From assembly GCF_054482525.1 (NCBI RefSeq), contig NZ_CM137006.1: a stretch of 64,000 nucleotides of DNA, one strand, 5' to 3'. Position numbers and translations under genes: made by a program. The notes beneath the pieces are model-generated. The model was not told where the DNA came from. It worked only from the letters and a program-made list of their open reading frames with translations, and made no database searches. Below are positions 8,355-61,154 of the stretch, piece by piece; within the stretch, counting starts at the first letter, position 1; every line of letters starts with the position of its first letter.

Positions 8355-8387
8355 GGTGCGCATAATGTGCTACACGTTATGTTGAAA
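8355..8387 (+). other. Phage att (dif-like) site at copy junction: XerC arm GGTGCGCATAA, 11-bp spacer TGTGCTACACG, XerD-like arm TTATGTTGAAA
   Basis: Perfect match to the XerC-binding arm of E. coli dif; best XerD-like arm (9 of 11) is displaced 5 bp relative to dif geometry. Confidence 0.8.
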
Positions 8388-34583: not shown

Positions 34584-34611
34584 GGTGCGCATAATGTATA
34601 TTATGTTAAAT
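34584..34611 (+). other. dif: Chromosomal dif site (XerC arm, 6-bp central region, XerD arm)
   Basis: Exact 28-mer GGTGCGCATAATGTATATTATGTTAAAT, the canonical E. coli dif as recalled; phage sequence ends within or next to the central region. Confidence 0.93.
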
Positions 34612-35034: not shown

Positions 35035-35467
35035 TAAACCCTGCACTTATCTGGTTAGAGCATTTCGGCATTAGTTTCACTATGCAAACATTAACCATAG
35101 CTAATGATTTATAGCCATATAAACCATTAGTCGCTCTTGACTTTTCCTGACACTTCCCTTGTTCGCAATAATATTCTGTTTAGTCGCTGTTTATAAATAT
35201 CATGCATAATGAAATCGTCATGTTATTTAGCGACATAAAATGTCTTTGCAAATACTCTCTACAACAAGTGCTGCAATAAACTTGTTGTGATTAGGTGTCC
35301 TTGTAATTTAAAGATATTATCGTTCTTCGTGAAATGTAATAACCCTGGAAACTATATTCTCAGGGCAACAACCAATTAAGAATGATTCTTGTTTTATAAG
35401 CAATAACAGAATGACTTAATTGTTAACTCTCTTTATTCAGCTACTTAAATATAAATTTTGGAGAATT

Positions 35468-36031
35468 ATGAAACTCAAACATGTCGGTATGATTGTCGTT
35501 TCTGTGTTGGCGATGTCGTCTGCTGCGGTAAGCGCAGCCGAGGGTGATGAATCAGTAACGACCACTGTTAATGGCGGTGTTATTCATTTTAAAGGTGAAG
35601 TGGTAAATGCCGCTTGTGCGATTGATTCAGAATCAATGAACCAAACGGTTGAGCTGGGTCAGGTTCGTTCTTCTCGCCTGGCAAAAGCGGGTGACCTCAG
35701 CTCTGCCGTTGGCTTCAATATCAAGCTGAATGATTGTGATACCAATGTTTCCAGTAATGCAGCTGTTGCATTCCTGGGTACTACTGTCACCAGTAATGAC
35801 GATACCTTAGCGCTGCAGAGTTCAGCGGCAGGCTCTGCCCAAAATGTCGGTATTCAAATTTTGGACCGTACGGGGGAGGTATTAATACTTGATGGTGCCA
35901 CTTTTAGCGCTAAAACCGACTTGATTGATGGCACGAATATACTGCCATTCCAGGCTCGTTATATTGCTCTCGGGCAGTCAGTAGCTGGTACTGCAAACGC
36001 TGATGCGACCTTCAAAGTTCAATATCTATAA
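35468..36031 (+). CDS. Fimbrial major subunit (FimA-like), F9-type chaperone-usher operon
   Basis: 187 aa from the ATG with GGAG Shine-Dalgarno; signal peptide ending AVSAAEG; type 1 fimbrial subunit features (Cys pair, C-terminal beta-strand ending FKVQYL). Confidence 0.85.
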
Positions 36032-36384
36032 TTCAATCTTAAGATGGCTATACGTCATCTGAAATTGAAACAGGGTGTGTGTTGCATGGCTACGCACACC
36101 CGAGCAATTCACCAATGTTCATCTCATTATTAATGAGGAATAGTTTGTGTTTTGGAGCGGTATGAAAAAATCACATAATATCTAAACGATCAATAAACAA
36201 CAGTAGTTAAACTTACTGTTATTTAAAATATTTACTTTGTAGCAAGGTTTTCCTATTAAAAGAGAACCAACATTTATTACAAACGCATTAAGTCTGGAAA
36301 CCCGGCGAGTCGCCAATGTATTAGCAACATTTACCGATTGTCTGATGTAACGGTTTCCCCGCTTATCCTCTTAACACATGGAGA

Positions 36385-37104
36385 ATGCATCAGATGCAAA
36401 CTACGCGTACCCCCTACTCTATTTCCTTTATGGCGACAGTGTTACTTTTATTGCTCTTTGCTTGCCATAGCACCGTTGCCAACGCAGCTGTCGCACTGGG
36501 TGCGACGCGGGTAATTTATCCGGCAAACCAGAAACAGGTTTTATTGCCTGTCACGAATAATGATCCTGCCAGTGTCTATCTCATTCAGTCATGGATAGAA
36601 AATGCAGGTGACCAAAAAGACACCCAGTTTGTCATTACGCCACCGCTTTTTTCCATGCAAGGTAAAAAAGAGAATACGCTGCGGATAATCAACGCCACTA
36701 ATCATCAGTTACCAGGCGACCGTGAAAGCCTGTTCTGGGTTAATGTCAAAGCTATTCCTGCTATGGAAAAAGACCAGAAGAATGAGAATACATTACAGCT
36801 GGCAATTATTAGCCGCATAAAAATGTTTTATCGCCCCACGAACCTGGCAATGGCACCTGAAGAAGCGCCTGCAATGCTTCGGTTTCGTCGCAGCGGTAGC
36901 AAACTTACTCTTATTAATCCAACGCCCTACTTCATTACCGTAACAAATATGAAAGCAGGAAATAGCAATCTCCCAAATACCATGGTGCCGCCAAAAGGTG
37001 ATGTATCGGTGGATATCCCGCATGCTGCAACCGGGGATATCAGTTTTCAGACGATCAATGATTACGGTGCATTAACTCCGCGTATTAAGGCAACCATGCA
37101 GTAA
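36385..37104 (+). CDS. Periplasmic fimbrial chaperone (PapD/FimC-like)
   Basis: 239-aa ORF with signal peptide and chaperone N-domain motifs; start may be a downstream in-frame ATG (36394 or 36430). Confidence 0.8.
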   Translation: MHQMQTTRTPYSISFMATVLLLLLFACHSTVANAAVALGATRVIYPANQKQVLLPVTNNDPASVYLIQSWIENAGDQKDTQFVITPPLFSMQGKKENTLRIINATNHQLPGDRESLFWVNVKAIPAMEKDQKNENTLQLAIISRIKMFYRPTNLAMAPEEAPAMLRFRRSGSKLTLINPTPYFITVTNMKAGNSNLPNTMVPPKGDVSVDIPHAATGDISFQTINDYGALTPRIKATMQ

Positions 37105-37145
37105 ACCAGTGACCTAATTAATAATAAACTCAATCGGAATTAATA

Positions 37146-39797
37146 ATGACAGCCTTTCGTGCCGCATTTAAGGCATATCGTATGCATCAGGTATTACTAC
37201 TGCCTCGCTTTGCACGGCTTACCATTGCCCTTGGCTTAGCAACTGCGGTTTTTCCCGTTGACGCAGAGTATTATTTTAATCCACGGTTTTTAAGCAATGA
37301 TCTTGCTGAATCTGTCGATTTATCCGCCTTTACTAAGGGACGCGAGGCACCACCTGGTACATATCGGGTCGACATTTATTTGAACGACGAATTTATGACT
37401 AGTCGGGATATTACTTTTATTGCAGATGATAATAATGCAGATCTCATCCCATGCCTGAGTACAGACCTTCTTGTCAGTCTTGGCATAAAAAAATCAGCAT
37501 TATTAGACAATAAGGAACATTCGGCAGAAAAACATGTGCCGGACAACAGCGCATGCACACCACTTCGGGATCGTTTGGCTGACGCATCATCTGAGTTTAA
37601 TGTTGGTCAGCAACATCTATCACTCTCCGTTCCGCAAATTTATGTTGGCAGAATGGCTCGCGGCTATGTTTCTCCTGATCTGTGGGAAGAAGGAATAAAT
37701 GCTGGGCTTCTAAACTATAGTTTTAATGGTAATTCTATTAATAATCGTAGTAACCATAATGCAGGAAAATCCAACTATGCATATTTGAATTTACAGAGTG
37801 GCATCAACATTGGTAGTTGGCGACTGCGCGATAACTCAACGTGGAGTTATAACAGTGGGATTAGCAATTCATCTGACAGCAATAAATGGCAGCATATCAA
37901 TACGTCGGCTGAACGTGACATTATTCCCTTACGCTCACGCTTAACGGTAGGTGATAGTTATACCGATGGCGATATTTTTGATAGTGTGAACTTTCGTGGC
38001 CTCAAAATAAATTCAACAGAAGCGATGTTGCCCGATAGCCAACATGGTTTCGCTCCGGTGATTCATGGTATTGCCCGCGGCACCGCACAAGTGAGTGTAA
38101 AACAGAATGGATACGATGTTTATCAGACTACTGTCCCACCCGGCCCTTTTACTATTAATGATATCAACTCTGCGGCCAATGGTGGTGATCTGCAAGTAAC
38201 CATAAAAGAGGCAGACGGCAGTATTCAGACATTATATGTTCCTTATTCGTCTGTTCCTGTTCTCCAACGTGCTGGATATACGCGTTATGCGCTTGCCATG
38301 GGGGAATATCGTAGTGGAAATAATCTGCAAAGCTCCCCCAAGTTCATACAAGGTAGCTTGATGCATGGGCTGGAAGGAAACTGGACACCTTATGGCGGAA
38401 TGCAAATTGCAGAAGATTATCAGGCCTTCAACCTTGGTATTGGTAAAGATTTAGGACTTTTTGGTGCCTTTTCTTTCGATATCACGCAGGCCAATACGAC
38501 ACTTGCAGATGGCACCCGTCACAGCGGGCAATCGATTAAATCCGTCTACAGCAAATCCTTCTACCAGACGGGAACCAATATCCAGGTCGCAGGATATCGC
38601 TATTCTACGCAAGGTTTTTATAACTTATCCGACAGTGCCTACAGTCGAATGAGTGGTTACACCGTCAAGCCTCCTACCGGAGACAGCAACGAGCAGACAC
38701 AATTTATTGATTATTTTAATCTGTTCTACAGTAAGCGTGGTCAGGAACAAATAAGCATCTCTCAGCAGCTTGGAAATTACGGTACGACATTTTTCAGTGC
38801 CAGTCGCCAAAGTTACTGGAACACGTCACGCAGCGACCAGCAAATATCATTTGGATTAAATGTGCCGTTTGGTGATATTACGACTTCGCTGAATTACAGC
38901 TATTCCAATAATATATGGCAAAACGATCGGGATCATTTACTTGCTTTTACGCTTAATGTTCCCTTCAGTCATTGGATGCGTACAGACAGTCAGTCGGCAT
39001 TTCGTAATTCAAACGCCAGTTACAGTGTGTCAAACGATTTGAAAGGCGGCATGACCAATCTATCGGGGGTTTATGGTACTCTGCTGCCGGATAATAACCT
39101 GAATTATAGCGTTCAGGTCGGTAACACCCACGGAGGTAATACATCGTCTGGCACCAGTGGTTACAGTTCTCTTAATTATCGTGGAGCTTACGGTAATACT
39201 AATGTCGGTTACAGTCGGAGTGGGGACAGCAGCCAGATTTATTACGGAATGAGTGGTGGCATTATTGCTCATGCTGATGGCATCACCTTTGGACAGCCGC
39301 TGGGCGACACAATGGTTCTGGTTAAGGCTCCTGGCGCTGATAATGTCAAAATAGAGAACCAGACCGGAATTCATACCGACTGGCGTGGCTATGCCATATT
39401 ACCATTTGCGACAGAATATAGAGAAAATCGTGTCGCTCTTAACGCGAATTCCCTTGCAGATAATGTTGAACTGGATGAAACCGTGGTCACTGTCATCCCA
39501 ACTCACGGTGCTATTGCCAGAGCAACATTTAATGCACAAATCGGCGGGAAAGTATTAATGACGTTGAAGTACGGTAATAAGAGCGTTCCATTCGGTGCAA
39601 TTGTCACACACGGAGAGAATAAAAATGGCAGCATTGTCGCGGAAAACGGTCAGGTTTATCTGACTGGACTTCCACAGTCAGGGAAATTACAGGTTTCATG
39701 GGGCAAAGATAAAAACTCAAACTGTATTGTCGAGTACAAGCTTCCTGAAGTTTCTCCTGGTACCTTACTGAACCAGCAGACAGCAATCTGTCGCTAA
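37146..39797 (+). CDS. ydeT: Outer-membrane fimbrial usher (FimD-like), intact
   Basis: 883 aa, usher family by size and sequence character (YFNPRFL motif near the N-terminus); recalled as a truncated pseudogene (ydeT) in K-12. Confidence 0.85.
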   Translation: MTAFRAAFKAYRMHQVLLLPRFARLTIALGLATAVFPVDAEYYFNPRFLSNDLAESVDLSAFTKGREAPPGTYRVDIYLNDEFMTSRDITFIADDNNADLIPCLSTDLLVSLGIKKSALLDNKEHSAEKHVPDNSACTPLRDRLADASSEFNVGQQHLSLSVPQIYVGRMARGYVSPDLWEEGINAGLLNYSFNGNSINNRSNHNAGKSNYAYLNLQSGINIGSWRLRDNSTWSYNSGISNSSDSNKWQHINTSAERDIIPLRSRLTVGDSYTDGDIFDSVNFRGLKINSTEAMLPDSQHGFAPVIHGIARGTAQVSVKQNGYDVYQTTVPPGPFTINDINSAANGGDLQVTIKEADGSIQTLYVPYSSVPVLQRAGYTRYALAMGEYRSGNNLQSSPKFIQGSLMHGLEGNWTPYGGMQIAEDYQAFNLGIGKDLGLFGAFSFDITQANTTLADGTRHSGQSIKSVYSKSFYQTGTNIQVAGYRYSTQGFYNLSDSAYSRMSGYTVKPPTGDSNEQTQFIDYFNLFYSKRGQEQISISQQLGNYGTTFFSASRQSYWNTSRSDQQISFGLNVPFGDITTSLNYSYSNNIWQNDRDHLLAFTLNVPFSHWMRTDSQSAFRNSNASYSVSNDLKGGMTNLSGVYGTLLPDNNLNYSVQVGNTHGGNTSSGTSGYSSLNYRGAYGNTNVGYSRSGDSSQIYYGMSGGIIAHADGITFGQPLGDTMVLVKAPGADNVKIENQTGIHTDWRGYAILPFATEYRENRVALNANSLADNVELDETVVTVIPTHGAIARATFNAQIGGKVLMTLKYGNKSVPFGAIVTHGENKNGSIVAENGQVYLTGLPQSGKLQVSWGKDKNSNCIVEYKLPEVSPGTLLNQQTAICR

Positions 39798-39810
39798 GGA
39801 ACAATAGATT

Positions 39811-40341
39811 ATGAAATACAATAACATTATTTTCCTCGGTTTATGTCTGGGGTTAACCACCTATTCTGCTTTATCCGCAGATAGCGTTATTAAAATTAGC
39901 GGGCGCGTCCTCGATTATGGCTGCACAGTCTCATCGGATTCGCTTAATTTTACCGTAGATCTCCAAAAAAACAGTGCCAGACAATTTCCAACGACCGGTA
40001 GCACAAGTCCAGCCGTCCCTTTTCAGATTACGTTAAGTGAATGCAGTAAAGGGACAACGGGGGTTCGGGTTGCATTTAACGGTATTGAGGATGCAGAAAA
40101 TAATACTCTGTTGAAACTGGATGAAGGAAGCAATACGGCCTCCGGTTTGGGTATAGAAATACTGGACGGAAATATGCGTCCGGTGAAATTGAATGACCTT
40201 CATGCCGGGATGCAGTGGATCCCACTGGTACCAGAACAGAACAATATTTTGCCTTACTCCGCTCGTCTGAAGTCAACTCAGAAGTCCGTCAATCCGGGAC
40301 TGGTGAGGGCTTCGGCAACCTTTACCCTTGAATTTCAATAA
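39811..40341 (+). CDS. ydeS: Fimbrial minor subunit
   Basis: 176 aa with signal peptide; size and order match K-12 ydeS. Confidence 0.8.
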   Translation: MKYNNIIFLGLCLGLTTYSALSADSVIKISGRVLDYGCTVSSDSLNFTVDLQKNSARQFPTTGSTSPAVPFQITLSECSKGTTGVRVAFNGIEDAENNTLLKLDEGSNTASGLGIEILDGNMRPVKLNDLHAGMQWIPLVPEQNNILPYSARLKSTQKSVNPGLVRASATFTLEFQ

Positions 40342-40353
40342 TCAGAGTCAGAT

Positions 40354-40857
40354 ATGAAAAGACTTCACAAGAGGTTCCTGTTAGCTACGTTTTGCGCGTT
40401 ATTCACAGCAACTCTCCAGGCCGCCGATGTCACTATCACTGTTAATGGTCGGGTAGTCGCTAAACCCTGCACTATTCAAACCAAAGAAGCTAACGTTAAT
40501 CTCGGGGATCTTTATACGCGCAATCTGCAACAACCTGGTTCTGCATCAGGGTGGCACAATATTACTTTGTCATTAACCGATTGTCCGGTTGAAACAAGTG
40601 CAGTGACGGCAATCGTGACAGGTTCAACTGACAATACGGGTTATTACAAAAATGAAGGTACTGCCGAAAATATTCAGATAGAGCTAAGGGATGACCAGGA
40701 TGCGACGTTAAAAAATGGCGATAGCAAAACGGTTATTGTTGATGAGATCACTCGTAATGCACAGTTTCCACTTAAGGCAAGAGCTATCACGGTGAATGGA
40801 AACGCAAGCCAGGGAACGATCGAGGCGCTAATCAATGTGATCTACACCTGGCAATAA
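40354..40857 (+). CDS. ydeR: Fimbrial minor subunit
   Basis: 167 aa with signal peptide; size and order match K-12 ydeR. Confidence 0.8.
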   Translation: MKRLHKRFLLATFCALFTATLQAADVTITVNGRVVAKPCTIQTKEANVNLGDLYTRNLQQPGSASGWHNITLSLTDCPVETSAVTAIVTGSTDNTGYYKNEGTAENIQIELRDDQDATLKNGDSKTVIVDEITRNAQFPLKARAITVNGNASQGTIEALINVIYTWQ

Positions 40858-40916
40858 CGTCGATTCGATTTTCTTAGCCTCCTTTTTAAATCAATTTTTT
40901 AACCTTAGGATATATC

Positions 40917-41831
40917 ATGGGTAAAACAATAAGTATGAAGCTTCTGTTCGGTATTTATCTTCTATTAATGGCAGGCAAAGTTTTTGCCTTCAGTTGTAAT
41001 GTCGATGGCGGGTCAAGTATTGGAGCAGGTACAACCTCTGTTTATGTTAATCTCGACCCTGTAATACAACCGGGCCAGAATCTGGTTGTAGACTTGTCTC
41101 AGCATATAAGTTGCTGGAATGATTACGGCGGCTGGTACGACACTGATCATATAAACCTGGTACAAGGCTCAGCTTTCGCAGGCTCTCTACAGTCATATAA
41201 AGGATCGCTGTACTGGAATAATGTGACCTACCCCTTCCCGTTGACGACAAATACTAATGTATTAGATATTGGTGATAAGACACCGATGCCATTACCGTTA
41301 AAACTCTATATTACCCCAGTCGGGGCGGCCGGTGGAGTTGTCATAAAAGCCGGGGAAGTTATTGCCCGTATTCATATGTATAAAATTGCCACGTTAGGAA
41401 GCGGAAATCCGCGTAATTTTACGTGGAATATTATTTCAAATAACAGTGTTGTTATGCCAACAGGCGGCTGCACTGTTGATAGTCGTAATGTCACCGTGAA
41501 TCTCCCGGACTTTCCTGGAAGCGCAGAAATACCCCTTGGCGTATATTGCTCAAGCGAACAAAAGCTCTCATTTTATCTTTCGGGTGCCACCACTGACAGT
41601 GCCCGACAAGTGTTTGCTAACACAGCACCAGATGCAACAAAAGCATCGGGAGTGGGTGTCTCTCTGATGCGTAATGGAAAAATACTGGCTACGGGAGAAA
41701 ACGTCTCCCTGGGGACAGTAAATAAAAGCAAAGTACCTCTGGGTTTAAGCGCAACCTATGGACAAACAGGAAACAAGGTTGCAGCCGGAACAGTTCAGTC
41801 AGTCATTGGTGTCACTTTTATCTATGAATAA
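40917..41831 (+). CDS. ydeQ: FimH-like two-domain fimbrial tip adhesin
   Basis: 304 aa with signal peptide; adhesin-sized last gene of the operon; size matches K-12 ydeQ. Confidence 0.8.
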
Positions 41832-41921: not shown

Positions 41922-42169
41922 AATCCGCGCACAATTGAAGCCAGAGTCTTATTTTTTATATTGAAAAACATGTTAATTTAAACACTATGAGAGATGATGC
42001 TTAACTTATCGTATTTATACCATTCTATTATTTAACGATAATAGGTTAAAAATAGATAGAGAGTAGTCCCCTACTCTTATATATCCATATTGACGATAAT
42101 CCCTTTGTATATACTGTGCATCATCGCTATTACAAATCCTAATAATTCATTTCCACACAGGATAAGCAG

Positions 42170-44449
42170 ATGAAGAAAAAAATTGAATCCTACCAGGGAG
42201 CTGCCGGTGGATGGGGTGCTGTTAAATCCGTAGCAAATGCAGTACGTAAGCAGATGGATATACGCCAGGATGTTATTGCCATGTTTGACATGAATAAGCC
42301 AGAGGGCTTTGACTGTCCGGGATGTGCATGGCCAGATCCTAAGCACAGTGCGTCATTCGACATTTGTGAAAACGGCGCAAAAGCAATCGCCTGGGAAGTC
42401 ACGGATAAGCAGGTAAATGCCTCTTTCTTTGCTGAGAATACGGTTCAATCATTACTTACCTGGGGAGATCACGAGCTTGAGGCTGCGGGGCGTCTCACCC
42501 AGCCTTTGAAATATGATGCCGTCAGCGACTGTTACAAGCCATTAAGCTGGCAACAAGCTTTCGACGAAATTGGCGAACGCCTTCAAAGCTATAGTGATCC
42601 CAATCAGGTTGAATTCTATACTTCGGGCCGCACTTCCAATGAAGCTGCCTTTCTTTATCAGCTTTTTGCTCGTGAATACGGGAGCAATAACTTCCCCGAC
42701 TGCTCCAACATGTGCCATGAACCGACCAGTGTGGGTTTGGCAGCGAGTATCGGTGTAGGTAAAGGGACCGTGTTGCTGGAAGACTTTGAGAAATGCGATT
42801 TAGTCATTTGCATTGGGCATAACCCTGGTACAAACCACCCTCGCATGTTGACTTCGTTGCGCGCTTTAGTGAAACGGGGAGCGAAAATGATCGCCATCAA
42901 TCCTCTACAGGAACGTGGCCTGGAGCGATTTACCGCACCGCAAAACCCGTTTGAAATGCTGACGAACTCTGAGACTCAGTTGGCCAGTGCCTACTACAAC
43001 GTGCGCATTGGTGGTGATATGGCGTTGCTCAAGGGGATGATGCGCCTGTTAATTGAGCGCGATGATGCTGCAAGCGCCGCAGGTCGGCCCTCATTGCTGG
43101 ATGACGAATTTATTCAAACGCATACCGTCGGCTTTGACGAGCTACGCCGTGACGTTCTCAATTCCGAGTGGAAAGATATCGAGCGTATTTCTGGACTAAG
43201 TCAGACTCAAATCGCCGAACTGGCTGATGCATATGCCGCTGCCGAACGCACCATTATCTGTTACGGAATGGGGATCACTCAGCACGAACATGGTACCCAG
43301 AATGTACAGCAACTGGTCAATCTGCTGTTGATGAAAGGTAACATTGGCAAGCCTGGTGCGGGTATCTGCCCACTACGAGGTCACTCTAATGTACAGGGCG
43401 ACCGAACCGTCGGTATCACCGAGAAACCGTCTGCAGAGTTTCTGGCTCGCCTGGGTGAGCGCTATGGTTTCACCCCACCTCATGCACCTGGACATGCTGC
43501 AATTGCCAGCATGCAAGCAATATGTACGGGGCAGGCTCGAGCATTGATCTGCATGGGGGGCAACTTTGCACTGGCAATGCCAGATCGGGAAGCGAGCGCT
43601 GTACCGTTAACGCAATTAGATTTGGCGGTACACGTAGCCACTAAGCTTAACCGCTCTCATCTGCTGACCGCACAGCATAGCTATATTCTGCCGGTTCTTG
43701 GGCGTAGCGAGATTGACATGCAAAAAAGCGGTGCGCAGGCGGTAACCGTTGAGGATTCAATGTCGATGATTCATGCCTCGCGTGGCGTGTTAAAACCCGC
43801 CGGTGTAATGCTGAAATCAGAGTGTGCAGTGGTCGCGGGTATCGCGCAGGCGGCACTACCCCAGAGCGTGGTAGCCTGGGAGTATCTGGTGGAAGATTAT
43901 GATCGCATTCGCAATGACATTGAAGCTGTGCTGCCAGAATTCGCCGACTATAACCAGCGCATCCGACATCCTGGAGGTTTTCACCTGATAAACGCAGCTG
44001 CTGAAAGGCGCTGGAGGACGTCGTCAGGTAAGGCTAATTTCATTACCAGCAAAGGGCTGTTAGAAGATCCCTCTTCAGCGTTTAACAGTAAGCTGGTCAT
44101 GGCGACAGTGCGCAGTCACGATCAGTACAATACGACGATTTATGGTATGGATGATCGCTATCGAGGGGTATTCGGTCAACGAGATGTGGTCTTTATGAGT
44201 GCTAAACAAGCTAAAATTTGCCGTGTGAAAAACGGCGAAAGAGTTAATCTTATTGCGCTCACGCCAGACGGTAAGCGCAGCTCACGCCGCATGGATAGAT
44301 TAAAAGTGGTCATTTACCCTATGGCTGACCGCTCACTGGTGACCTATTTTCCAGAATCGAATCACATGCTAACACTTGATAACCACGATCCATTAAGTGG
44401 CATTCCTGGCTATAAAAGTATTCCGGTTGAATTAGAACCATCAAATTAA
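42170..44449 (+). CDS. ydeP: Acid-resistance-associated molybdopterin oxidoreductase YdeP
   Basis: 759 aa; N-terminal Cys motif [11 protein letters not shown]; formate-dehydrogenase-like family; size and sequence match E. coli YdeP as recalled. Confidence 0.9.
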
Positions 44450-44696: not shown

Positions 44697-44894
44697 ATGC
44701 ATGCGACCATAGTGAAAAATAAAATCACGCAAAGAGACAACTATAAAGAGATCATGTTTGTAATTGTGGTTGTCTTATTATTGACACTTACGTTGATAGC
44801 CATTTTTTCGGCGATTGATCAGCTGGGTATTTCAGGAATGGGTCGCATTGCAAGAGATATTACACATTTCATTATCAATAGTTTGCAAGACTGA
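44697..44894 (+). CDS. safA: Small membrane protein SafA (sensor-associated factor linking EvgS/EvgA to PhoQ/PhoP)
   Basis: 65 aa from MHATIVKNKITQRDNYKEIM with a single TM segment; matches K-12 SafA (b1500) as recalled; ORF-track ORF 44661-44894 trimmed to the homologous start. Confidence 0.8.
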   Translation: MHATIVKNKITQRDNYKEIMFVIVVVLLLTLTLIAIFSAIDQLGISGMGRIARDITHFIINSLQD

Positions 44895-44968: not shown

Positions 44969-45730
44969 ATGTCGCTCGTTTGTTCTGTTATATTTATTCA
45001 TCATGCCTTCAACGCTAACATTTTAGATAAAGATTACGCCTTCTCTGACGGCGAGATCCTGATGGTAGATAACGCTGTTCGTACGCATTTTGAACCTTAT
45101 GAGCGGCATTTCAAAGAAATCGGATTTAATGAAAACACCATTAAAAAATATCTACAATGCACTAACATTCAGACAGTGACGGTGCCTGTTCCTGCGAAGT
45201 TTTTACGTGCTTCAAATGTACCGACTGGATTGCTTAATGAAATGATTGCTTATCTCAACTCGGAAGAACGCAATCATCATAATTTTTCAGAACTTTTGCT
45301 TTTTTCCTGCCTGTCTATTTTTGCCGCATGCAAAGGTTTCATTACACTATTAACTAACGGTGTGCTATCCGTTTCCGGGAAAGTGAGAAATATTGTCAAT
45401 ATGAAGCTGGCGCACCCATGGAAACTGAAAGATATTTGTGACTGCCTGTACATCAGTGAAAGCCTGCTCAAGAAAAAACTAAAGCAAGAGCAAACGACAT
45501 TCTCACAGATTCTTTTAGATGCCAGAATGCAGCACGCAAAAAATTTGATACGCGTAGAAGGTTCAGTCAATAAAATTGCCGAGCAATGTGGTTATGCCAG
45601 TACATCTTATTTTATTTATGCGTTCCGCAAACATTTCGGCAACAGTCCGAAGAGAGTTTCTAAGGAGTACCGTTGTCAAAGGCACACGGGAATAAATACG
45701 GGCAACACGATGAATGCTTTAGCTATTTGA
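44969..45730 (+). CDS. ydeO: AraC-family acid-resistance regulator YdeO
   Basis: 253 aa; C-terminal AraC HTH (GYASTSYFIYAFRKHFGNSP); conserved position after safA. Confidence 0.9.
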   Translation: MSLVCSVIFIHHAFNANILDKDYAFSDGEILMVDNAVRTHFEPYERHFKEIGFNENTIKKYLQCTNIQTVTVPVPAKFLRASNVPTGLLNEMIAYLNSEERNHHNFSELLLFSCLSIFAACKGFITLLTNGVLSVSGKVRNIVNMKLAHPWKLKDICDCLYISESLLKKKLKQEQTTFSQILLDARMQHAKNLIRVEGSVNKIAEQCGYASTSYFIYAFRKHFGNSPKRVSKEYRCQRHTGINTGNTMNALAI

Positions 45731-51038: not shown

Positions 51039-53411
51039 ATGAAGCGAGTTCTTATTCCTGGCGTCATTTTATGTGGCGCTGATGTGGCGCAGGCCGTCGA
51101 TGACAAAAACATGTACATGCATGTTTTTGAAGAGATGACGGTCTATGCTCCTGTCCCTGTACCCGTAAACGGCAACACGCATTACACCAGTGAAAGCATC
51201 GAGCGTTTACCGACCGGGAATGGCAATATCAGCGATCTGCTGAGAACAAACCCTGCGGTGCGCATGGATTCAACGCAAAGTACCTCGTTGAACCAGGGCG
51301 ATATTCGCCCGGAGAAAATCTCTATTCACGGTGCGTCGCCCTACCAGAATGCCTATTTGATTGACGGTATTAGTGCAACTAATAACCTGAACCCAGCGAA
51401 TGAGTCCGATGCCAGTAGTGCAACCAATATTAGCGGGATGTCACAGGGGTATTATCTTGATGTCAGCTTACTGGACAATGTGACGCTTTATGACAGTTTT
51501 GTGCCGGTTGAATTTGGTCGCTTCAATGGCGGGGTAATTGATGCAAAGATCAAACGCTTCAACGCTGATGATAGCAGCGTGAAACTGGGTTACCGCACTA
51601 CGCGTTCGGACTGGTTAACATCGCATATCGATGAGAATAACAAGAGCGCATTTAATCAAGGTTCTTCAGGAAGTACTTATTTCTCTCCAGATTTTAAAAA
51701 GAACTTTTATACCTTGTCGTTTAATCAGGAACTGGCTGATAACTTTGGCGTTACTGCCGGTTTATCGCGCCGCCAGTCTGATATCACCCGCGCGGATTAT
51801 GTTTCGAATGACGGCATTGTCGCCGGTCGGGCACAGTATAAAAATGTTATCGATACCGCATTGAGCAAATTTACCTGGTTTGCCAGCGACCGCTTTACCC
51901 ACGATTTAACCTTAAAATATACCGGCTCCAGTCGTGATTATAATACCAGCACCTTCCCGCAGTCTGATCGCGAAATGGGTAATAAATCCTACGGTCTGGC
52001 ATGGGATATGGATACGCAACTTGCATGGGCCAAACTACGTACCACCGTTGGTTGGGATCATATTAGTGATTATACCCGTCACGATCATGACATCTGGTAC
52101 ACCGAACTTTCATGTACATATGGTGATATTACAGGGCGTTGCACCCGTGGCGGATTAGGACACATTTCCCAGGCTGTAGATAATTACACCTTCAAAACAC
52201 GCCTGGACTGGCAAAAATTCACCGTGGGTAATGTTTCGCATCAACCCTACTTCGGCGCGGAATACATCTATTCCGATGCATGGACTGAACGCCATAACCA
52301 GTCTGAATCCTATGTGATTAATGCTGCCGGAAAGAAAACTAACCATACCATTTACCATAAAGGTAAAGGCAGCCTGGGAATTGACAACTACACGCTGTAT
52401 ATGGCGGATCGCATTAGCTGGCGTAATGTGTCATTAATGCCCGGCGTGCGGTATGACTATGACAACTATCTGTCAAACCACAATATCTCCCCGCGCTTTA
52501 TGACGGAATGGGATATTTTTGCTGATCAAACCTCAATGATTACCGCAGGTTATAACCGTTACTATGGCGGGAATATTCTTGATATGGGATTACGTGATAT
52601 CCGCAATAGCTGGACGGAATCGGTATCAGGCAATAAAACCCTGACGCGTTATCAGGATTTGAAAACACCTTATAACGATGAACTGGCAATGGGGTTGCAG
52701 CAGAAAATCGGTAAGAACGTTATTGCGCGTGCAAACTATGTTTATCGTGAAGCGCATGATCAAATCAGTAAAAGCAGTCGTACCGACAGCGCGACTAAAA
52801 CTACCATTACTGAATATAACAACGACGGCAAAACCAAAACGCATTCGTTCAACCTCAGTTTTGAACTGGCCGAACCCCTGCATATCAGCCAGGTAGATAT
52901 TAACCCGCAAATTGTCTTTAGCTATATCAAGAGCAAGGGCAACTTGTCGTTAAACAATGGTTATGAGGAAAGCAATACCGGTGATAACCAGGTGGTTTAT
53001 AACGGTAATCTGGTCTCTTACGATAGCGTTCCAGTGGCAGATTTTAATAACCCATTAAAGATCTCCTTAAACATGGATTTCACGCATCAACCGAGCGGGT
53101 TGGTGTGGGCGAATACGCTGGCCTGGCAAGAAGCGCGTAAAGCTCGCATTATCCTTGGTAAGACAAATGCGCAATACATCAGTGAATATTCAGATTACAA
53201 GCAGTATGTTGACGAAAAACTGGATAGCAGCCTGACCTGGGACACCCGCTTGTCCTGGACGCCACAATTTTTTAAACAACAAAACCTGACGATCAGTGCC
53301 GATATTCTCAATGTACTGGATAGCAAAACCGCGGTTGATACAACGAATACCGGTGTGGCGACCTACGCCAGTGGCCGTACTTTCTGGCTTGATGTCAGCA
53401 TGAGATTTTAA
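51039..53411 (+). CDS. yddB: TonB-dependent-receptor-like outer-membrane protein YddB
   Basis: 790 aa with signal peptide, beta-barrel character, C-terminal aromatic residue (F); follows yddA as in K-12. Confidence 0.8.
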   Translation: MKRVLIPGVILCGADVAQAVDDKNMYMHVFEEMTVYAPVPVPVNGNTHYTSESIERLPTGNGNISDLLRTNPAVRMDSTQSTSLNQGDIRPEKISIHGASPYQNAYLIDGISATNNLNPANESDASSATNISGMSQGYYLDVSLLDNVTLYDSFVPVEFGRFNGGVIDAKIKRFNADDSSVKLGYRTTRSDWLTSHIDENNKSAFNQGSSGSTYFSPDFKKNFYTLSFNQELADNFGVTAGLSRRQSDITRADYVSNDGIVAGRAQYKNVIDTALSKFTWFASDRFTHDLTLKYTGSSRDYNTSTFPQSDREMGNKSYGLAWDMDTQLAWAKLRTTVGWDHISDYTRHDHDIWYTELSCTYGDITGRCTRGGLGHISQAVDNYTFKTRLDWQKFTVGNVSHQPYFGAEYIYSDAWTERHNQSESYVINAAGKKTNHTIYHKGKGSLGIDNYTLYMADRISWRNVSLMPGVRYDYDNYLSNHNISPRFMTEWDIFADQTSMITAGYNRYYGGNILDMGLRDIRNSWTESVSGNKTLTRYQDLKTPYNDELAMGLQQKIGKNVIARANYVYREAHDQISKSSRTDSATKTTITEYNNDGKTKTHSFNLSFELAEPLHISQVDINPQIVFSYIKSKGNLSLNNGYEESNTGDNQVVYNGNLVSYDSVPVADFNNPLKISLNMDFTHQPSGLVWANTLAWQEARKARIILGKTNAQYISEYSDYKQYVDEKLDSSLTWDTRLSWTPQFFKQQNLTISADILNVLDSKTAVDTTNTGVATYASGRTFWLDVSMRF

Positions 53412-53455: not shown

Positions 53456-56251
53456 ATGGAGATAATTATGAGAAACCTCTGTTTCTTACTGACGTTAGTG
53501 GCAACTCTGTTGCTCCCCGGGCGACTGTTTGCCGCCGCCTTACCGCAGGATGAAAAGTTAATTACCGGGCAACTGGACAATGGCTTGCGATATATGATTT
53601 ATCCGCATGCTCAACCAAAGGATCAGGTAAATTTATGGCTGCAAATTCATACGGGTTCATTGCAGGAAGAAGCCAATGAGCGCGGCGTGGCTCATTTTGT
53701 AGAACATATGATGTTTAACGGCACAAAAACATGGCCGGGTAATAAAGTCATCGAAACATTTGAGTCGATGGGTCTGCGCTTTGGTCGCGATGTTAATGCC
53801 TATACCAGCTATGACGAAACGGTGTATCAGGTGAGTTTGCCGACTACGCAGAAACAAAATCTGCAACAAGTGATGGCAATATTCAGTGAATGGGGTAATG
53901 CCGCAACCTTTGATAAACTCGAAGTAGACGCTGAACGCGGCGTAATTACTGAGGAATGGCGTGCCCATCAGGATGTGAAATGGCGCACCTCTCAGGCACG
54001 CCGCCCTTTCCTGCTGGCAAATACCCGTAATTTAGACCGTGAACCTATCGGCCTGATGGATACTGTCGCCACGGTCACACCGGCACAATTGCGCCAATTT
54101 TATCAACGCTGGTATCAACCAAATAATATGACCTTTATCGTGGTCGGCGATATTGACAGTAAAGAAGCGCTGGCGCTGATAAAGGATAATTTAAGTAAGC
54201 TTACGGCTAACAAAGCAGCTGAAAATCGCGTCTGGCCGACTAAAGCAGAAAACCACCTGCGCTTTAATATCATTAATGATAAAGAAAACCGGGTGAACGG
54301 CATCGCTCTCTATTATCGCCTGCCAATGGTACAAGTGAACGATGAGCAAAGCTTTATCGAACAAGCTGAATGGAGCATGTTAGTTCAGCTGTTCAATCAA
54401 CGTCTGCAGGAACGCATACAGTCGGGCGAGTTGAAGACTATTTCTGGCGGCACTGCGCGCAGCGTTAAAATTGCACCCGATTATCAGTCGCTGTTTTTCC
54501 GTGTAAATGCACGAGACGATAATATGCAGGATGCTGCGAATGCATTAATGGCAGAGTTGGCAACCATTGATCAGCATGGTTTTTCTGCTGAAGAACTCGA
54601 TGATGTCAAATCTACCCGCCTCACCTGGCTGAAAAATGCGGTTGATCAGCAAGCTGAACGTGATTTACGTATGCTGACCAGTCGCCTGGCATCCAGCTCA
54701 TTAAATAATACGCCGTTCTTGTCGCCGGAAGAGACATATCAACTTTCGAAACGTCTGTGGCAGCAAATTACCGTGCAAAGTCTGGCGAAAAAATGGCAGC
54801 AGTTAAGAAAGAACCAGGACGCATTTTGGGAGCAAATGGTAAACAATGAGGTTGCCGCCAAAAAAGCATTGTCTCCTGCGGCTATCCTGGCGCTGGAAAA
54901 AGAGTACGCCAACAAAAAGCTGGCGGCTTACATCTTCCCAGGCAGAAATTTATCGTTAACAGTAGACGCTGACCCACAGGCGGAAATTAGCAGCAAAGAA
55001 ACGCTGGCTGAGAATCTGACATCATTAACACTTTCTAATGGTGCCAGGGTTATTCTGGCAAAATCCGCGGGTGAAGAGCAAAAGCTACAAATTACTGCCG
55101 TATCTAATAAAGGCGATTTAAGTTTCCCTGCGCAGCAAAAATCACTTATCGCGCTGGCAAATAAAGCAGTAAGCGGAAGCGGCGTTGGTGAACTCTCCTC
55201 TTCCAGCCTGAAACGCTGGAGTGCGGAAAACTCGGTAACCATGAGCAGTAAAGTCAGTGGCATGAATACGTTGCTCTCCGTTAGCGCGCGGGCTAATAAC
55301 CCTGAACCTGGTTTCCAGTTGATTAACCAGCGAATCACCCACAGCACGATTAACGACAATATTTGGGCATCGCTACAAAATGCTCAAATTCAGGCGTTGA
55401 AAACGCTCGACCAGCGTCCAGCGGAGAAATTCGCCCAGCAGATGTATGAGACGCGCTATGCTGATAACCGCACGAAATTACTGCAAGAAAATCAGATTGC
55501 ACAGTTTACTGCCGCAGATGCGCTGGCTGCCGATCGCCAGTTGTTTTCATCTCCAGCGGATATCACGTTTGTCATTGTCGGTGATGTCGCAGAAGACAAA
55601 CTTCTTCCGTTAATTACGCGTTACTTAGGCTCAATCAAACACTATGATTCGCCATTAGCCGCAGGTAAACCATTAACTCGCGCGACGGACAATGCATCGG
55701 TTACGGTAAAAGAACAAAATGAACCTGTGGTACAGGTTTCACAGTGGAAGCGTTATGATTCCTGGACACCTGTAAATCTGGCGACGCGTATGGCGCTCGA
55801 TGCTTTTAACGTCGCACTGGCAAAAGATCTACGCATTAATATTCGTGAACAGGCATCTGGGGCATACAGCGTTTCTTCTCGCCTCTCGATTGATCCTCAG
55901 GCCAAAGATATCAGTCATTTGCTGGCTTTTACTTGTCAACCGGAACGACATGATGAACTGTTAACGTTAGCGAATGAAGTGATGGTTAAGCGTCTGGCTA
56001 AAGGGATCAGTGAGCAAGAACTGAACGAATACCAGCAAAACGTTCAGCGCAGCCTCGATATCCAACAGCGTAGCGTTCAACAATTAGCGAACACCATTGT
56101 AAATAGTCTTATTCAATATGACGATCCTGCAGCATGGACTGAGCAGGAGCAATTGTTGAAACAAATGACGGTAGAGAATGTTAACACTGCCGTTAAACAA
56201 TATCTTTCTCATCCGGTGAATACCTATACCGGAGTATTATTGCCAAAATAA
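53456..56251 (+). CDS. pqqL: Periplasmic zinc metalloprotease PqqL (M16 family)
   Basis: 931 aa; inverted zinc-binding motif HFVEH; signal peptide; alternative start at 53468 (MRNLC, GGAG Shine-Dalgarno) because a hairpin at 53429-53450 ends 6 bp before 53456. Confidence 0.85.
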   Translation: MEIIMRNLCFLLTLVATLLLPGRLFAAALPQDEKLITGQLDNGLRYMIYPHAQPKDQVNLWLQIHTGSLQEEANERGVAHFVEHMMFNGTKTWPGNKVIETFESMGLRFGRDVNAYTSYDETVYQVSLPTTQKQNLQQVMAIFSEWGNAATFDKLEVDAERGVITEEWRAHQDVKWRTSQARRPFLLANTRNLDREPIGLMDTVATVTPAQLRQFYQRWYQPNNMTFIVVGDIDSKEALALIKDNLSKLTANKAAENRVWPTKAENHLRFNIINDKENRVNGIALYYRLPMVQVNDEQSFIEQAEWSMLVQLFNQRLQERIQSGELKTISGGTARSVKIAPDYQSLFFRVNARDDNMQDAANALMAELATIDQHGFSAEELDDVKSTRLTWLKNAVDQQAERDLRMLTSRLASSSLNNTPFLSPEETYQLSKRLWQQITVQSLAKKWQQLRKNQDAFWEQMVNNEVAAKKALSPAAILALEKEYANKKLAAYIFPGRNLSLTVDADPQAEISSKETLAENLTSLTLSNGARVILAKSAGEEQKLQITAVSNKGDLSFPAQQKSLIALANKAVSGSGVGELSSSSLKRWSAENSVTMSSKVSGMNTLLSVSARANNPEPGFQLINQRITHSTINDNIWASLQNAQIQALKTLDQRPAEKFAQQMYETRYADNRTKLLQENQIAQFTAADALAADRQLFSSPADITFVIVGDVAEDKLLPLITRYLGSIKHYDSPLAAGKPLTRATDNASVTVKEQNEPVVQVSQWKRYDSWTPVNLATRMALDAFNVALAKDLRINIREQASGAYSVSSRLSIDPQAKDISHLLAFTCQPERHDELLTLANEVMVKRLAKGISEQELNEYQQNVQRSLDIQQRSVQQLANTIVNSLIQYDDPAAWTEQEQLLKQMTVENVNTAVKQYLSHPVNTYTGVLLPK

Positions 56252-56513
56252 TAACAGCCCCGTCAACACCTCGTTGGCGGGGATTTTAGCAATATTCGCC
56301 ATTTTTATGTAATAATTTTATAAATGCGTTCAAAATAATAGCCGAGTGCTAATAATGATATTTTAAGGTCTGATTTTTACGCGATAATTCATGAGGCATA
56401 GAAAGCGCATAAAAATAACAACATAAAACACCTTACTACCACCCAACAATTCTCTATTGTATTGTTTTTTAATGAAAAAACATTATTCGCGCAATATTTC
56501 ACGATAAATAACA

Positions 56514-56533
56514 TTAGGATTTTGTTATTTAAA
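56514..56533 (+). promoter_or_regulatory. GAD box (GadE binding site) upstream of gadB
   Basis: Exact 20-mer TTAGGATTTTGTTATTTAAA, the recalled GAD-box sequence, 80 bp upstream of the gadB ATG. Confidence 0.75.
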
Positions 56534-56612
56534 CCCGAGTCCTTTGCACTTGCTTACTTTATCGATAAATCCTACTTTTTTAATGCGATCCAATCATTTT
56601 AAGGAGTTTAAA

Positions 56613-58013
56613 ATGGATAAGAAGCAAGTAACGGATTTAAGGTCGGAACTACTCGATTCACGTTTTGGTGCGAAGTCTATTTCCACTATCGCAGAATCAA
56701 AACGTTTTCCGCTGCACGAAATGCGCGATGATGTCGCATTCCAGATTATCAATGACGAATTATATCTTGATGGCAACGCTCGTCAGAACCTGGCCACTTT
56801 CTGCCAGACCTGGGACGACGAAAATGTCCATAAGTTGATGGATTTATCCATTAACAAAAACTGGATCGACAAAGAAGAATATCCGCAATCTGCAGCCATC
56901 GACCTGCGTTGCGTAAACATGGTTGCCGATCTGTGGCATGCGCCTGCGCCGAAAAATGGTCAGGCCGTTGGCACCAACACCATTGGTTCTTCCGAGGCCT
57001 GTATGCTCGGCGGGATGGCGATGAAATGGCGTTGGCGCAAGCGTATGGAAGCCGCAGGCAAACCAACAGATAAACCAAACCTGGTGTGCGGTCCGGTACA
57101 AATCTGCTGGCATAAATTCGCCCGCTACTGGGATGTGGAGCTGCGTGAGATCCCTATGCGCCCCGGTCAGTTGTTTATGGACCCGAAACGCATGATTGAA
57201 GCCTGCGACGAAAACACCATCGGCGTGGTGCCGACTTTCGGCGTGACCTATACCGGTAACTATGAGTTCCCGCAACCGCTGCACGATGCGCTGGATAAAT
57301 TCCAGGCCGACACCGGCATCGACATCGACATGCACATCGACGCCGCCAGCGGTGGCTTCCTGGCACCGTTCGTCGCCCCGGATATCGTCTGGGACTTCCG
57401 CCTGCCGCGTGTGAAATCGATCAGTGCTTCAGGCCATAAATTCGGTCTGGCTCCGCTGGGCTGTGGCTGGGTTATCTGGCGTGATGAAGAAGCGCTGCCG
57501 CAGGAACTGGTGTTCAACGTTGACTATCTCGGTGGTCAGATTGGGACTTTCGCCATCAACTTCTCCCGCCCGGCGGGTCAGGTGATTGCACAGTACTATG
57601 AATTCCTGCGCCTTGGTCGTGAAGGCTATACCAAAGTACAGAACGCTTCCTACCAGGTCGCTGCCTATCTGGCGGATGAAATCGCCAAACTGGGGCCGTA
57701 TGAGTTCATCTGTACCGGTCGCCCGGACGAAGGCATTCCGGCGGTTTGCTTCAAACTGAAAGATGGTGAAGATCCGGGATACACCCTGTATGACCTCTCT
57801 GAACGTCTGCGTCTGCGCGGCTGGCAGGTTCCAGCCTTCACTCTCGGCGGTGAAGCCACTGACATCGTGGTGATGCGCATTATGTGTCGTCGCGGCTTCG
57901 AAATGGACTTTGCTGAACTGTTGCTGGAAGACTACAAAGCCTCCCTGAAATATCTCAGCGATCACCCGAAACTGCAGGGTATTGCCCAGCAGAACAGCTT
58001 TAAACATACCTGA
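56613..58013 (+). CDS. gadB: Glutamate decarboxylase beta (PLP-dependent)
   Basis: 466 aa from [19 protein letters not shown]; immediately upstream of gadC; ORF-track ORF 56544-58013 trimmed to the homologous ATG. Confidence 0.93.
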
Positions 58014-58168: not shown

Positions 58169-59704
58169 ATGGCTACATCAGTACAGACAGGTAAAGCTAA
58201 GCAGCTCACATTACTCGGATTTTTTGCCATAACGGCATCGATGGTAATGGCTGTTTATGAATACCCTACCTTCGCAACATCGGGCTTTTCATTAGTCTTC
58301 TTCCTGCTATTAGGCGGGATTTTATGGTTTATTCCCGTGGGACTTTGTGCTGCGGAAATGGCCACCGTCGACGGCTGGGAAGAAGGTGGTGTCTTCGCCT
58401 GGGTATCAAATACTCTGGGGCCGAGATGGGGATTTGCAGCGATCTCATTTGGCTATCTGCAAATCGCCATTGGTTTTATTCCGATGCTCTATTTCGTGTT
58501 AGGGGCACTCTCCTACATCCTGAAATGGCCAGCGCTGAATGAAGACCCCATTACCAAAACTATTGCAGCACTCATCATTCTTTGGGCGCTGGCATTAACG
58601 CAGTTTGGTGGCACGAAATACACGGCGCGAATCGCTAAAGTTGGCTTCTTCGCCGGTATCCTGTTACCTGCATTTATTTTGATCGCATTAGCGGCTATTT
58701 ATTTGCACTCCGGTGCCCCCGTTGCTATCGAAATGGATTCGAAGACCTTCTTCCCTGACTTCTCTAAAGTGGGCACCCTGGTTGTATTTGTTGCCTTCAT
58801 TTTGAGTTATATGGGGGTAGAAGCATCTGCAACCCACGTCAATGAAATGAGCAACCCAGGGCGCGACTATCCGTTGGCTATGTTACTGCTGATGGTGGCG
58901 GCAATCTGCTTAAGCTCTGTTGGCGGTTTGTCTATTGCGATGGTCATTCCGGGTAATGAAATCAACCTCTCCGCAGGGGTAATGCAAACCTTTACCGTTC
59001 TGATGTCCCATGTGGCACCGGAAATTGAGTGGACGGTTCGCGTGATCTCCGCACTGCTGTTGCTGGGTGTTCTGGCGGAAATCGCTTCCTGGATTGTTGG
59101 CCCTTCTCGCGGTATGTATGTGACTGCGCAGAAAAACCTGCTACCCGCTGCGTTCGCCAAAATGAATAAAAATGGCGTGCCAGTAACGCTGGTTATTTCT
59201 CAGTTGGTAATTACTTCCATCGCGTTGATTATCCTCACCAATACTGGTGGTGGTAACAACATGTCCTTCCTGATCGCACTGGCGCTGACGGTGGTGATTT
59301 ATCTGTGTGCTTATTTCATGCTGTTTATTGGCTACATTGTGTTGGTTCTTAAACATCCTGACTTAAAACGCACATTTAATATCCCTGGTGGTAAAGGGGT
59401 GAAACTGGTCGTGGCTGTTGTCGGTCTGCTGACTTCAATTATGGCGTTTATTGTTTCCTTCCTGCCGCCGGATAACATCCAGGGTGACTCTACCGATATG
59501 TATGTTGAATTACTGGTCGTTAGTTTCCTGGTGGTACTTGCCCTGCCCTTTATTCTCTATGCTGTTCATGATCGTAAAGGCAAAGCGAATACCGGCGTCA
59601 CTCTGGAGCCAATCAACAGTAAGAACGCACCAAAAGGTCACTTCTTCCTGCACCCGCGTGCACGTTCACCACACTATATTGTGATGAATGACAAGAAACA
59701 CTAA
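58169..59704 (+). CDS. gadC: Glutamate:GABA antiporter
   Basis: 511 aa, polytopic membrane protein (APC family); follows gadB. Confidence 0.93.
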
Positions 59705-59834: not shown

Positions 59835-61154
59835 ATGGATATCTGCTCCCGAAACGAGAAATTAGCGATTAGAAGACCAGCGGTACTGGTTGCACTGGCA
59901 CTTTTACTGTGTAGTTGCAAAAGCACGCCTCCAGAGTCAATGGTGACACCACCAACAGGTTCGAAGCCACCAGCTACGACGCAACAATCGTCACAACCGA
60001 TGCGTGGCATCTGGCTGGCTACGGTGTCTCGCCTCGACTGGCCACCGGTTTCCTCGGTTAACATTAGTAACCCCACCAGCCGGGCCCGTGTACAACAACA
60101 GGCGATGATCGACAAACTGGATCATCTGCAACGTCTCGGCATAAACACGGTCTTTTTCCAGGTCAAGCCGGACGGTACCGCCCTGTGGCCATCGAAAATT
60201 TTGCCGTGGTCCGATCTTATGACCGGAAAGATTGGTGAAAATCCAGGTTACGATCCGCTGCAATTTATGCTCGACGAAGCCCACAAGCGTGGGATGAAAG
60301 TACACGCCTGGTTTAACCCCTATCGCGTATCGGTTAATACGAAGCCCGGTACTATCAGGGAACTGAATAGCACTCTGTCTCAACAACCAGCGAGCGTCTA
60401 TGTGCAACACCGCGACTGGATCAGAACGTCCGGCGATCGCTTTGTCCTCGACCCGGGCATCCCTGAAGTTCAGGACTGGATCACATCAATAGTCGCGGAA
60501 GTGGTTTCCCGCTATCCGGTAGATGGCGTGCAGTTTGACGACTATTTCTATACTGAGTCACCAGGTTCACGGCTAAATGATAACGAAACGTACCGCAAAT
60601 ACGGAGGCGCATTTGCGTCAAAAGCAGACTGGCGGCGCAACAATACTCAGCAGTTAATTGCGAAGGTATCGCACACCATTAAAAGCATTAAGCCGGAAGT
60701 CGAATTTGGCGTTAGCCCGGCAGGCGTGTGGCGTAACCGATCACACGATCCGCTCGGTTCCGATACCCGAGGCGCGGCAGCCTATGACGAATCCTATGCT
60801 GACACCCGTCGATGGGTGGAACAAGGATTGCTGGATTACATTGCTCCCCAAATTTACTGGCCGTTCTCACGGAGTGCCGCGCGTTATGACGTGTTGGCAA
60901 AATGGTGGGCGGATGTCGTTAAACCGACCAGGACCCGCCTGTATATCGGTATCGCCTTCTATAAAGTGGGTGAACCTTCAAAGATAGAGCCAGACTGGAT
61001 GATTAACGGCGGCGTACCGGAACTGAAAAAACAGCTCGATCTTAACGATGCCGTGCCAGAAATTAGCGGCACAATCTTGTTCCGTGAGGACTATCTGAAT
61101 AAACCGCAGACTCAACAAGCGGTTAGCTATCTGCAAAGTCGTTGGGGCAGTTAA
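59835..61154 (+). CDS. yddW: Lipoprotein YddW (glycoside-hydrolase-like)
   Basis: 439 aa; lipobox LLLCSC; size and order match K-12 yddW. Confidence 0.8.
   Translation: MDICSRNEKLAIRRPAVLVALALLLCSCKSTPPESMVTPPTGSKPPATTQQSSQPMRGIWLATVSRLDWPPVSSVNISNPTSRARVQQQAMIDKLDHLQRLGINTVFFQVKPDGTALWPSKILPWSDLMTGKIGENPGYDPLQFMLDEAHKRGMKVHAWFNPYRVSVNTKPGTIRELNSTLSQQPASVYVQHRDWIRTSGDRFVLDPGIPEVQDWITSIVAEVVSRYPVDGVQFDDYFYTESPGSRLNDNETYRKYGGAFASKADWRRNNTQQLIAKVSHTIKSIKPEVEFGVSPAGVWRNRSHDPLGSDTRGAAAYDESYADTRRWVEQGLLDYIAPQIYWPFSRSAARYDVLAKWWADVVKPTRTRLYIGIAFYKVGEPSKIEPDWMINGGVPELKKQLDLNDAVPEISGTILFREDYLNKPQTQQAVSYLQSRWGS

Follow-up and report, generated by a model that had tools for sequence, protein, structure and literature searches.

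The intergenic region at positions 56252-56612 of the 64,000-nucleotide stretch of DNA that we analysed (the window) is almost certainly the orthologue of the K-12 pqqL-gadB intergenic region, that is, the gadBC promoter; we found nothing that speaks against this identification. This promoter with its GAD box is already known and is an ordinary feature; its value here is that it anchors the window to the gadBC/terminus region of the E. coli chromosome, in reverse K-12 orientation. [quoted passage not shown] Set against drifting distal DNA, the invariant stretch that runs from the box to the start codon amounts to a clean phylogenetic footprint of a textbook promoter; mechanistically, it holds nothing new.

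The region corresponds exactly to the 361 bp between pqqL, whose ORF ends at 56251, and gadB. The gadB start codon (A56613-T56614-G56615) lies 23 codons inside a mechanically called ORF (56544-58013) and coincides with the annotated gadB start in E. coli PCN033. From this ATG, gadB (56613-58013, plus strand) encodes glutamate decarboxylase B, a protein of 466 amino acids that matches K-12 GadB at 466/466 positions and is annotated as gadB in the identical PCN033 sequence. The second gene of the operon, gadC (58169-59704, plus strand), encodes the 511-residue glutamate:GABA antiporter; it is annotated as gadC at the equivalent coordinates of PCN033 and K-12 and shares 97.6% nucleotide identity with its K-12 counterpart. 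Three further plus-strand ORFs match the K-12 and PCN033 annotation: yddB (51039-53411), pqqL (53456-56251), and digH (59835-61154). Both the gene order yddB-pqqL-gadB-gadC-digH and a GadB-type N-terminus are present, identifying the locus as the orthologue of K-12 b1493-b1492. The preliminary description of this DNA had called gadBC and placed the window in reverse orientation relative to K-12. The first call is borne out by the identical GadB flanked by pqqL and gadC, the second by the strand of pqqL-gadB-gadC-digH, which is plus here and minus in MG1655.

We considered whether the locus might instead be the paralogous gadA promoter and gene, or a product of gadA/gadB conversion. The two promoters do share an identical GAD box, the block comprising the RcsB box and the -10 element, and the Shine-Dalgarno sequence, and GadA and GadB differ at only 5 residues. 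All five of these differences, however, lie within the first 22 residues (GadB here matches K-12 GadA at 461/466 positions), and the N-terminus, MDKKQVTDL...KSIS, is the GadB form. The sequences flanking the box on both sides are also of the gadB type, not the gadA type, and it is pqqL that lies upstream and gadC that lies downstream, in place of ccp and gadX. Promoter comparison, protein alignments, and synteny all refute a gadA identity, which we regard as extremely improbable, and we treat the locus as gadBC in what follows.

The GAD box, TTAGGATTTTGTTATTTAAA, is an exact 20/20 match at 56514-56533 on the plus strand, found both by pattern search and by direct reading of the sequence. Neither strand of the 64-kb window contains a second match, even at up to 3 mismatches, a stringency at which shuffled sequences predict 0.03 matches. 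Counted from the last base of the box, the A of the gadB ATG is 80 nt away, so that 79 nt separate the two, and the gene directly downstream of the box is a glutamate decarboxylase gene (the ORF identical to K-12 GadB at all 466 residues). An exact box at these positions is what had been reported from the sequence alone, and the distance of 80 bp upstream of gadB given for it is acceptable when counted from the end of the box to the A of the ATG. Its identification as the GadE-binding GAD box also stands; the 20-mer is a published site, quoted as TTAGGAttTTgTTATTTAAa in PMC4918353, and it is found in both the gadB and the gadA promoters of K-12. The part that needs refinement is the binding species, which is the GadE-RcsB heterodimer and not GadE alone (PMC2887963). 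In that study the GAD box spans 20 bp, with its centre 63 bp before the starts of gadA and gadBC and with 16 bp separating it from the -35 element. It found that GadE by itself does not bind the GAD box in vitro, attributed earlier reports of GadE binding to co-purifying RcsB, and demonstrated for K-12 gadA, by EMSA, DNase I footprinting, and lacZ fusions, both that the heterodimer binds the box and that GadE-dependent activation requires it; the DNase I footprint of GadE plus RcsB on gadA spans -50 to -76 (PMC2887963).

The geometry of the site in the window agrees with these reports. If transcription starts 27 nt before the ATG, a start transferred from K-12, the centre of the box falls at -62.5, in agreement with the published -63, and the published gadA footprint maps onto 56510-56536. 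By identity with the K-12 sequence, we infer that the box would be bound by GadE-RcsB and would be needed for GadE-dependent activation. The genes gadE, rcsB, gadX, and gadW were all absent from the 64-kb window. The GadE ChIP-exo motif TTARGAWWWWAAATA gave 9 matches in the window against 10.8 expected, and the true box was not recovered by it at up to 2 mismatches. One candidate from this motif, TTAGGATTTGTAATA on the minus strand (42128-42142), lies immediately ahead of ydeP; it does not exceed the chance expectation and was rejected.

Between the box and the ATG, the elements of the promoter, all on the plus strand, follow the published arrangement. A 16-bp spacer (56534-56549), kept in length and not in sequence, separates the GAD box from a putative -35 element, TTGCTT (56550-56555), which we placed by the published geometry exactly 16 bp after the box. 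This hexamer is identical to that of K-12 and is a weak match to the consensus. The putative -10 element, TACTTT (56573-56578), also identical to K-12, lies 17 bp after the -35 element and ends 8 nt before the predicted start. Within that 17-bp spacer, directly upstream of the -10 element, is the RcsB box, CGATAAATCC, at about 56563-56572 with approximate limits. [quoted passage not shown] Indeed, comparison of CGATAAATCC here with GGATAAATCC in gadA shows the published C-for-G difference. Transcription probably starts at about 56586, yielding a 27-nt 5' leader (56586-56612) that is 100% identical to K-12. The leader includes a strong Shine-Dalgarno sequence, AAGGAG (56601-56606), whose GGA is the CsrA site; with gadB RNA extending from -27 to +50 relative to the start codon, CsrA binding has been mapped over the Shine-Dalgarno sequence (GGA) (PMC11210196).

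A generic sigma-70 scan did not call the -35 and -10 elements of gadB because the hexamers are weak, as expected for an activator-dependent promoter. Its sole hit, at 56329-56356, was below the chance expectation and was ignored. A search against Rfam at gathering thresholds found no RNA family anywhere in the window, and no known sRNA in the intergenic region.

We aligned the region with the K-12 gadB promoter, the comparison by which the preliminary description had proposed that its interpretation be judged. Mismatches do exist: 56252-56612 aligns to MG1655 without gaps and with 23 substitutions in 361 positions (93.6% identity), yet the box, the -35 and -10 elements, the leader, and the Shine-Dalgarno sequence are identical. 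Upstream of the box lie 22 of the 23 differences, one of them in a hairpin loop (56270) and the other 21 in 56283-56501. Only 56535, two bases past the end of the box, differs on the proximal side; beginning with 56536, the two sequences are fully identical up to the ATG. Since the mismatches fall outside the functional core, the interpretation survives them. Identity to K-12 is 90.4% in the distal region (9.6% divergence), compared to 97.6-98.0% for the flanking genes. In gadB itself there are 33 differences from K-12 in 1401 nt, all of them silent, or roughly 0.1 per synonymous site. Given that the divergence of the distal region is close to this synonymous divergence, this region is drifting roughly as neutral DNA would. 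The sequence that extends from the box to the ATG is strongly constrained.

To this comparison we added an alignment of the window with 7 further E. coli alleles that were spread over the BLAST ranking of the whole intergenic region and chosen independently of the box. Among the 8 alleles, 52/219 columns are variable in the distal segment 56283-56501 (24%), compared to 3/111 in 56502-56612 (Fisher p = 1e-7). No column varies in the GAD box (0/20) or in 56536-56612 (0/77), and the proximal polymorphisms are found only at 56534 and 56535 within the spacer. Measured against the neighbouring non-coding DNA, the GAD box is thus under purifying selection. In strain AR_0085 (NZ_CP029741.1; our locus L011, 2990-3010), a natural deletion has fused the gadB promoter to a truncated copy of ydeN, a sulfatase gene. 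The deletion junction lies inside the GAD box; its left half, TTAGGATTTTG, is gone, leaving ...TTATGTAAACACGAG, and the core promoter is intact. The gadBC operon of this strain should have lost its GadE-RcsB site.

We also scanned for exact matches to the 20-mer beyond E. coli, using one genome per species from 100,044 species (298 Gb). There are 11 exact copies among these species representatives. Eight of them lie directly upstream of a GadA/GadB ORF in Escherichia: two copies in each of two representatives named E. coli, two in Escherichia sp. E1V33, one in E. albertii, and one in E. whittamii. The other three are found in metagenome-assembled genomes, one from Lentisphaeria and two from Bacteroidales (our loci L019, L020, and L022); we looked for a gad gene near these three copies and found none. 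They are chance matches, at about the number that 298 Gb gives. The existence of such chance copies means that the 20-mer alone, without its context, is not diagnostic.

The 8 Escherichia hits were then aligned with the window and with the K-12 gadB and gadA promoters, making 11 promoters. Because the scan demanded exact matches, the box could not vary in this set; no such condition applied to the other blocks, so their conservation is not built in. The 16-bp length of the spacer is the same in all 11 promoters and its sequence differs, and the DNA just upstream of the box is unconserved. The CTTGC of the -35 element is invariant, as is TACTTT at -10. The stretch spanning the RcsB box and the -10 element, GAT(A/T)AATCCTAC(T)TTTTTT, is conserved, with GAT(A/T)AATCCTAC almost invariant, and so are TTAAGGAGTT and the Shine-Dalgarno block.

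These data also bear on whether the 20-mer in the window could be a chance AT-rich match that has no regulatory role. The region has a GC content of only 27-35%, and the three copies in unrelated metagenome-assembled genomes lacking a nearby gad gene show that exact matches of this kind do arise in 298 Gb of sequence. Against this, the window should contain only 0.03 matches even if 3 mismatches are tolerated, the 20-mer stands at the same distance from the gadB ATG as it does in K-12, and the box is free of polymorphism while the neighbouring DNA varies at 24% of columns. A chance match is refuted for practical purposes, and we assign it a negligible probability; the 20-mer is best read as the GAD box of gadBC.

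Upstream of the box, just after the end of pqqL, there is a terminator-like hairpin on the plus strand (56258-56287), with a 10-bp stem and a 5-nt loop at 56258-56282, followed by AUUUU. Its predicted RNA fold has an energy of -18.6 kcal/mol (z = -3.96), and 0/200 shuffled sequences fold as well. A simple terminator scan missed it because its tail has only 4 T. The hairpin is a plausible terminator for pqqL, and termination there would follow from its predicted fold.

The remainder of the upstream DNA, 56283-56501 on the plus strand, is an AT-rich, polymorphic region with a GC content of 27.5-29.5%. In K-12, GadX/GadW and H-NS are reported to act on the distal upstream zone of gadB (PMC4918353; PMC2887963), and the low GC content here (27-30%) fits the reported repression by H-NS. 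One match to the GadX/GadW ChIP-exo motif, AGGTCTGATTTTTACGCGAT, is found at 56366-56385 on the plus strand, with 1 mismatch to AKGKCTGWTWTTWWYMYVAK (PMC4918353). It is the sole such match in the window, where 0.55 would be expected by chance, and its position as a GadX/GadW site is defined only by the motif from PMC4918353. The core of the motif, AGGTCTGATTTTTACG, is kept in 7/8 of the E. coli alleles, and its sole change from K-12 is C/T at 56382, on a degenerate Y position. A 41-aa ORF on the minus strand (56389-56514) was rejected as coding; it covers the most polymorphic DNA, and B2-type alleles have 1-nt indels in it (56397, 56411, and 56445).

The particular allele in the window is uncommon. 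Although the intergenic region finds matches in 5404/5426 complete E. coli genomes, at least 99% identity is reached in only 3. Over 56252-56400, only 2 positions separate the allele from that of strain BS-04, compared to 9-17 for the other strains; over 56401-56535, its nearest relative is strain E28, with 7 differences compared to 12-17 for others. Two of its substitutions, at 56392 and 56447, are shared with none of the other 7 alleles. This pattern suggests that the distal allele is a mosaic that may have arisen by recombination.

This raises another reading of the locus, in which the core promoter is canonical and a rare mosaic allele of the distal region (56283-56501) alters the input from GadX/GadW or H-NS, so that the level or timing of gadBC expression would differ in a PCN033-like lineage. 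The rarity of the allele (3/5404 genomes), its 21 differences from K-12 in 219 bp, its private substitutions, and the resemblance of its left half to BS-04 (2 mismatches) and of its right half to E28 (7 mismatches), suggestive of recombination, are all in keeping with such an effect. However, the distal region has diverged about as much as the synonymous sites of gadB, which is what weakly constrained DNA should show, and the sole recognisable GadX/GadW motif keeps its core, with the one C/T change at 56382 on the degenerate Y. We see no reason to think that the allele matters functionally and consider this reading unlikely. The quantitative input from GadX/GadW/H-NS could still differ, given the 21 differences from K-12 at 219 distal positions; we favour a gadBC promoter regulated as in K-12.

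The mechanism that we propose carries K-12 work over to a sequence that is identical in the relevant parts; for this strain, the binding of proteins, the site where transcription starts, and the regulatory output are accordingly given as expectations. The GadE-RcsB heterodimer would occupy the box, centred at about -63, and activate RNA polymerase carrying sigma-70 or sigma-S at a poor core promoter. This would turn on gadB, the decarboxylase gene, together with gadC, the glutamate/GABA antiporter gene, in stationary phase and at acid pH. High levels of RcsB would repress the promoter through the RcsB box adjoining the -10 element, and GadX/GadW and H-NS would act on the AT-rich distal part. 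CsrA would repress translation at the GGA inside the Shine-Dalgarno sequence.

Elsewhere in the window there are other genes of the acid-resistance regulon: ydeP (42170-44449), safA (about 44697-44894), and ydeO (44969-45730), named according to the equivalent PCN033 annotation. A fimbrial operon (35420-41831) lies between these genes and dif. As assembled, positions 1-34597 form a perfect tandem array with a period of 8743 bp, 3.96 copies, and 0 mismatches, which runs off the left edge of the window. The junctions between units fall at 8355, 17098, and 25841, and each unit encodes an inovirus gene set comprising pII-like replication, virion/attachment, pI/Zot-like, pIV secretin, and repressor-like proteins. 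The repeat pattern breaks off within an exact E. coli dif site (34584-34611), and the unit junctions carry a hybrid dif-like site, GGTGCGCATAATGT joined to GCTACACGTTATGT. Such an arrangement is what XerCD-mediated integration of a filamentous prophage at dif, in tandem copies, is expected to produce. Related prophages are found at the same place in other E. coli, at about 97% identity in two and about 90% among the other matches listed. Among deposited phage genomes, the sole match to the array is 75% identity over gene I of phage I2-2.

Among the known systems closest to the region is that of E. coli PCN033 (NZ_CP006632.1), whose gadB upstream region is 100% identical over a 362-bp query. 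Rightwards of dif, PCN033 and the window share 99.994% identity from 34582 up to at least 50405. On the left-hand side of dif, in contrast, the PCN033 record carries an ISNCY transposase fragment, hipA/hipB, and an autotransporter gene in the place of the prophage array, so the DNA analysed here stems from a close relative, or else from a different assembly. The gadBC promoter of K-12 MG1655, upstream of b1493, has the same flanking genes and the same length of 361 bp without gaps. Its GAD box, the length of its 16-bp spacer, its -35 element, RcsB box, -10 element, leader, and Shine-Dalgarno sequence, and the GadB protein are all identical to those described here; it differs by the 23 substitutions, and the orientation of the window is reversed relative to K-12 numbering. 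The K-12 gadA promoter is identical to the present region in its 20-bp GAD box, in the 16-bp distance from this box to the -35 element, in its GATAAATCCTACTTTTTT block, and in its Shine-Dalgarno sequence, but differs in the DNA upstream of the box, in the sequence of the spacer, and in the leader, and its RcsB box starts with G and not C. Unlike the gadBC locus here, gadA sits in the acid fitness island beside gadX, and it is at the gadA promoter of K-12 that binding by GadE-RcsB was demonstrated (PMC2887963).
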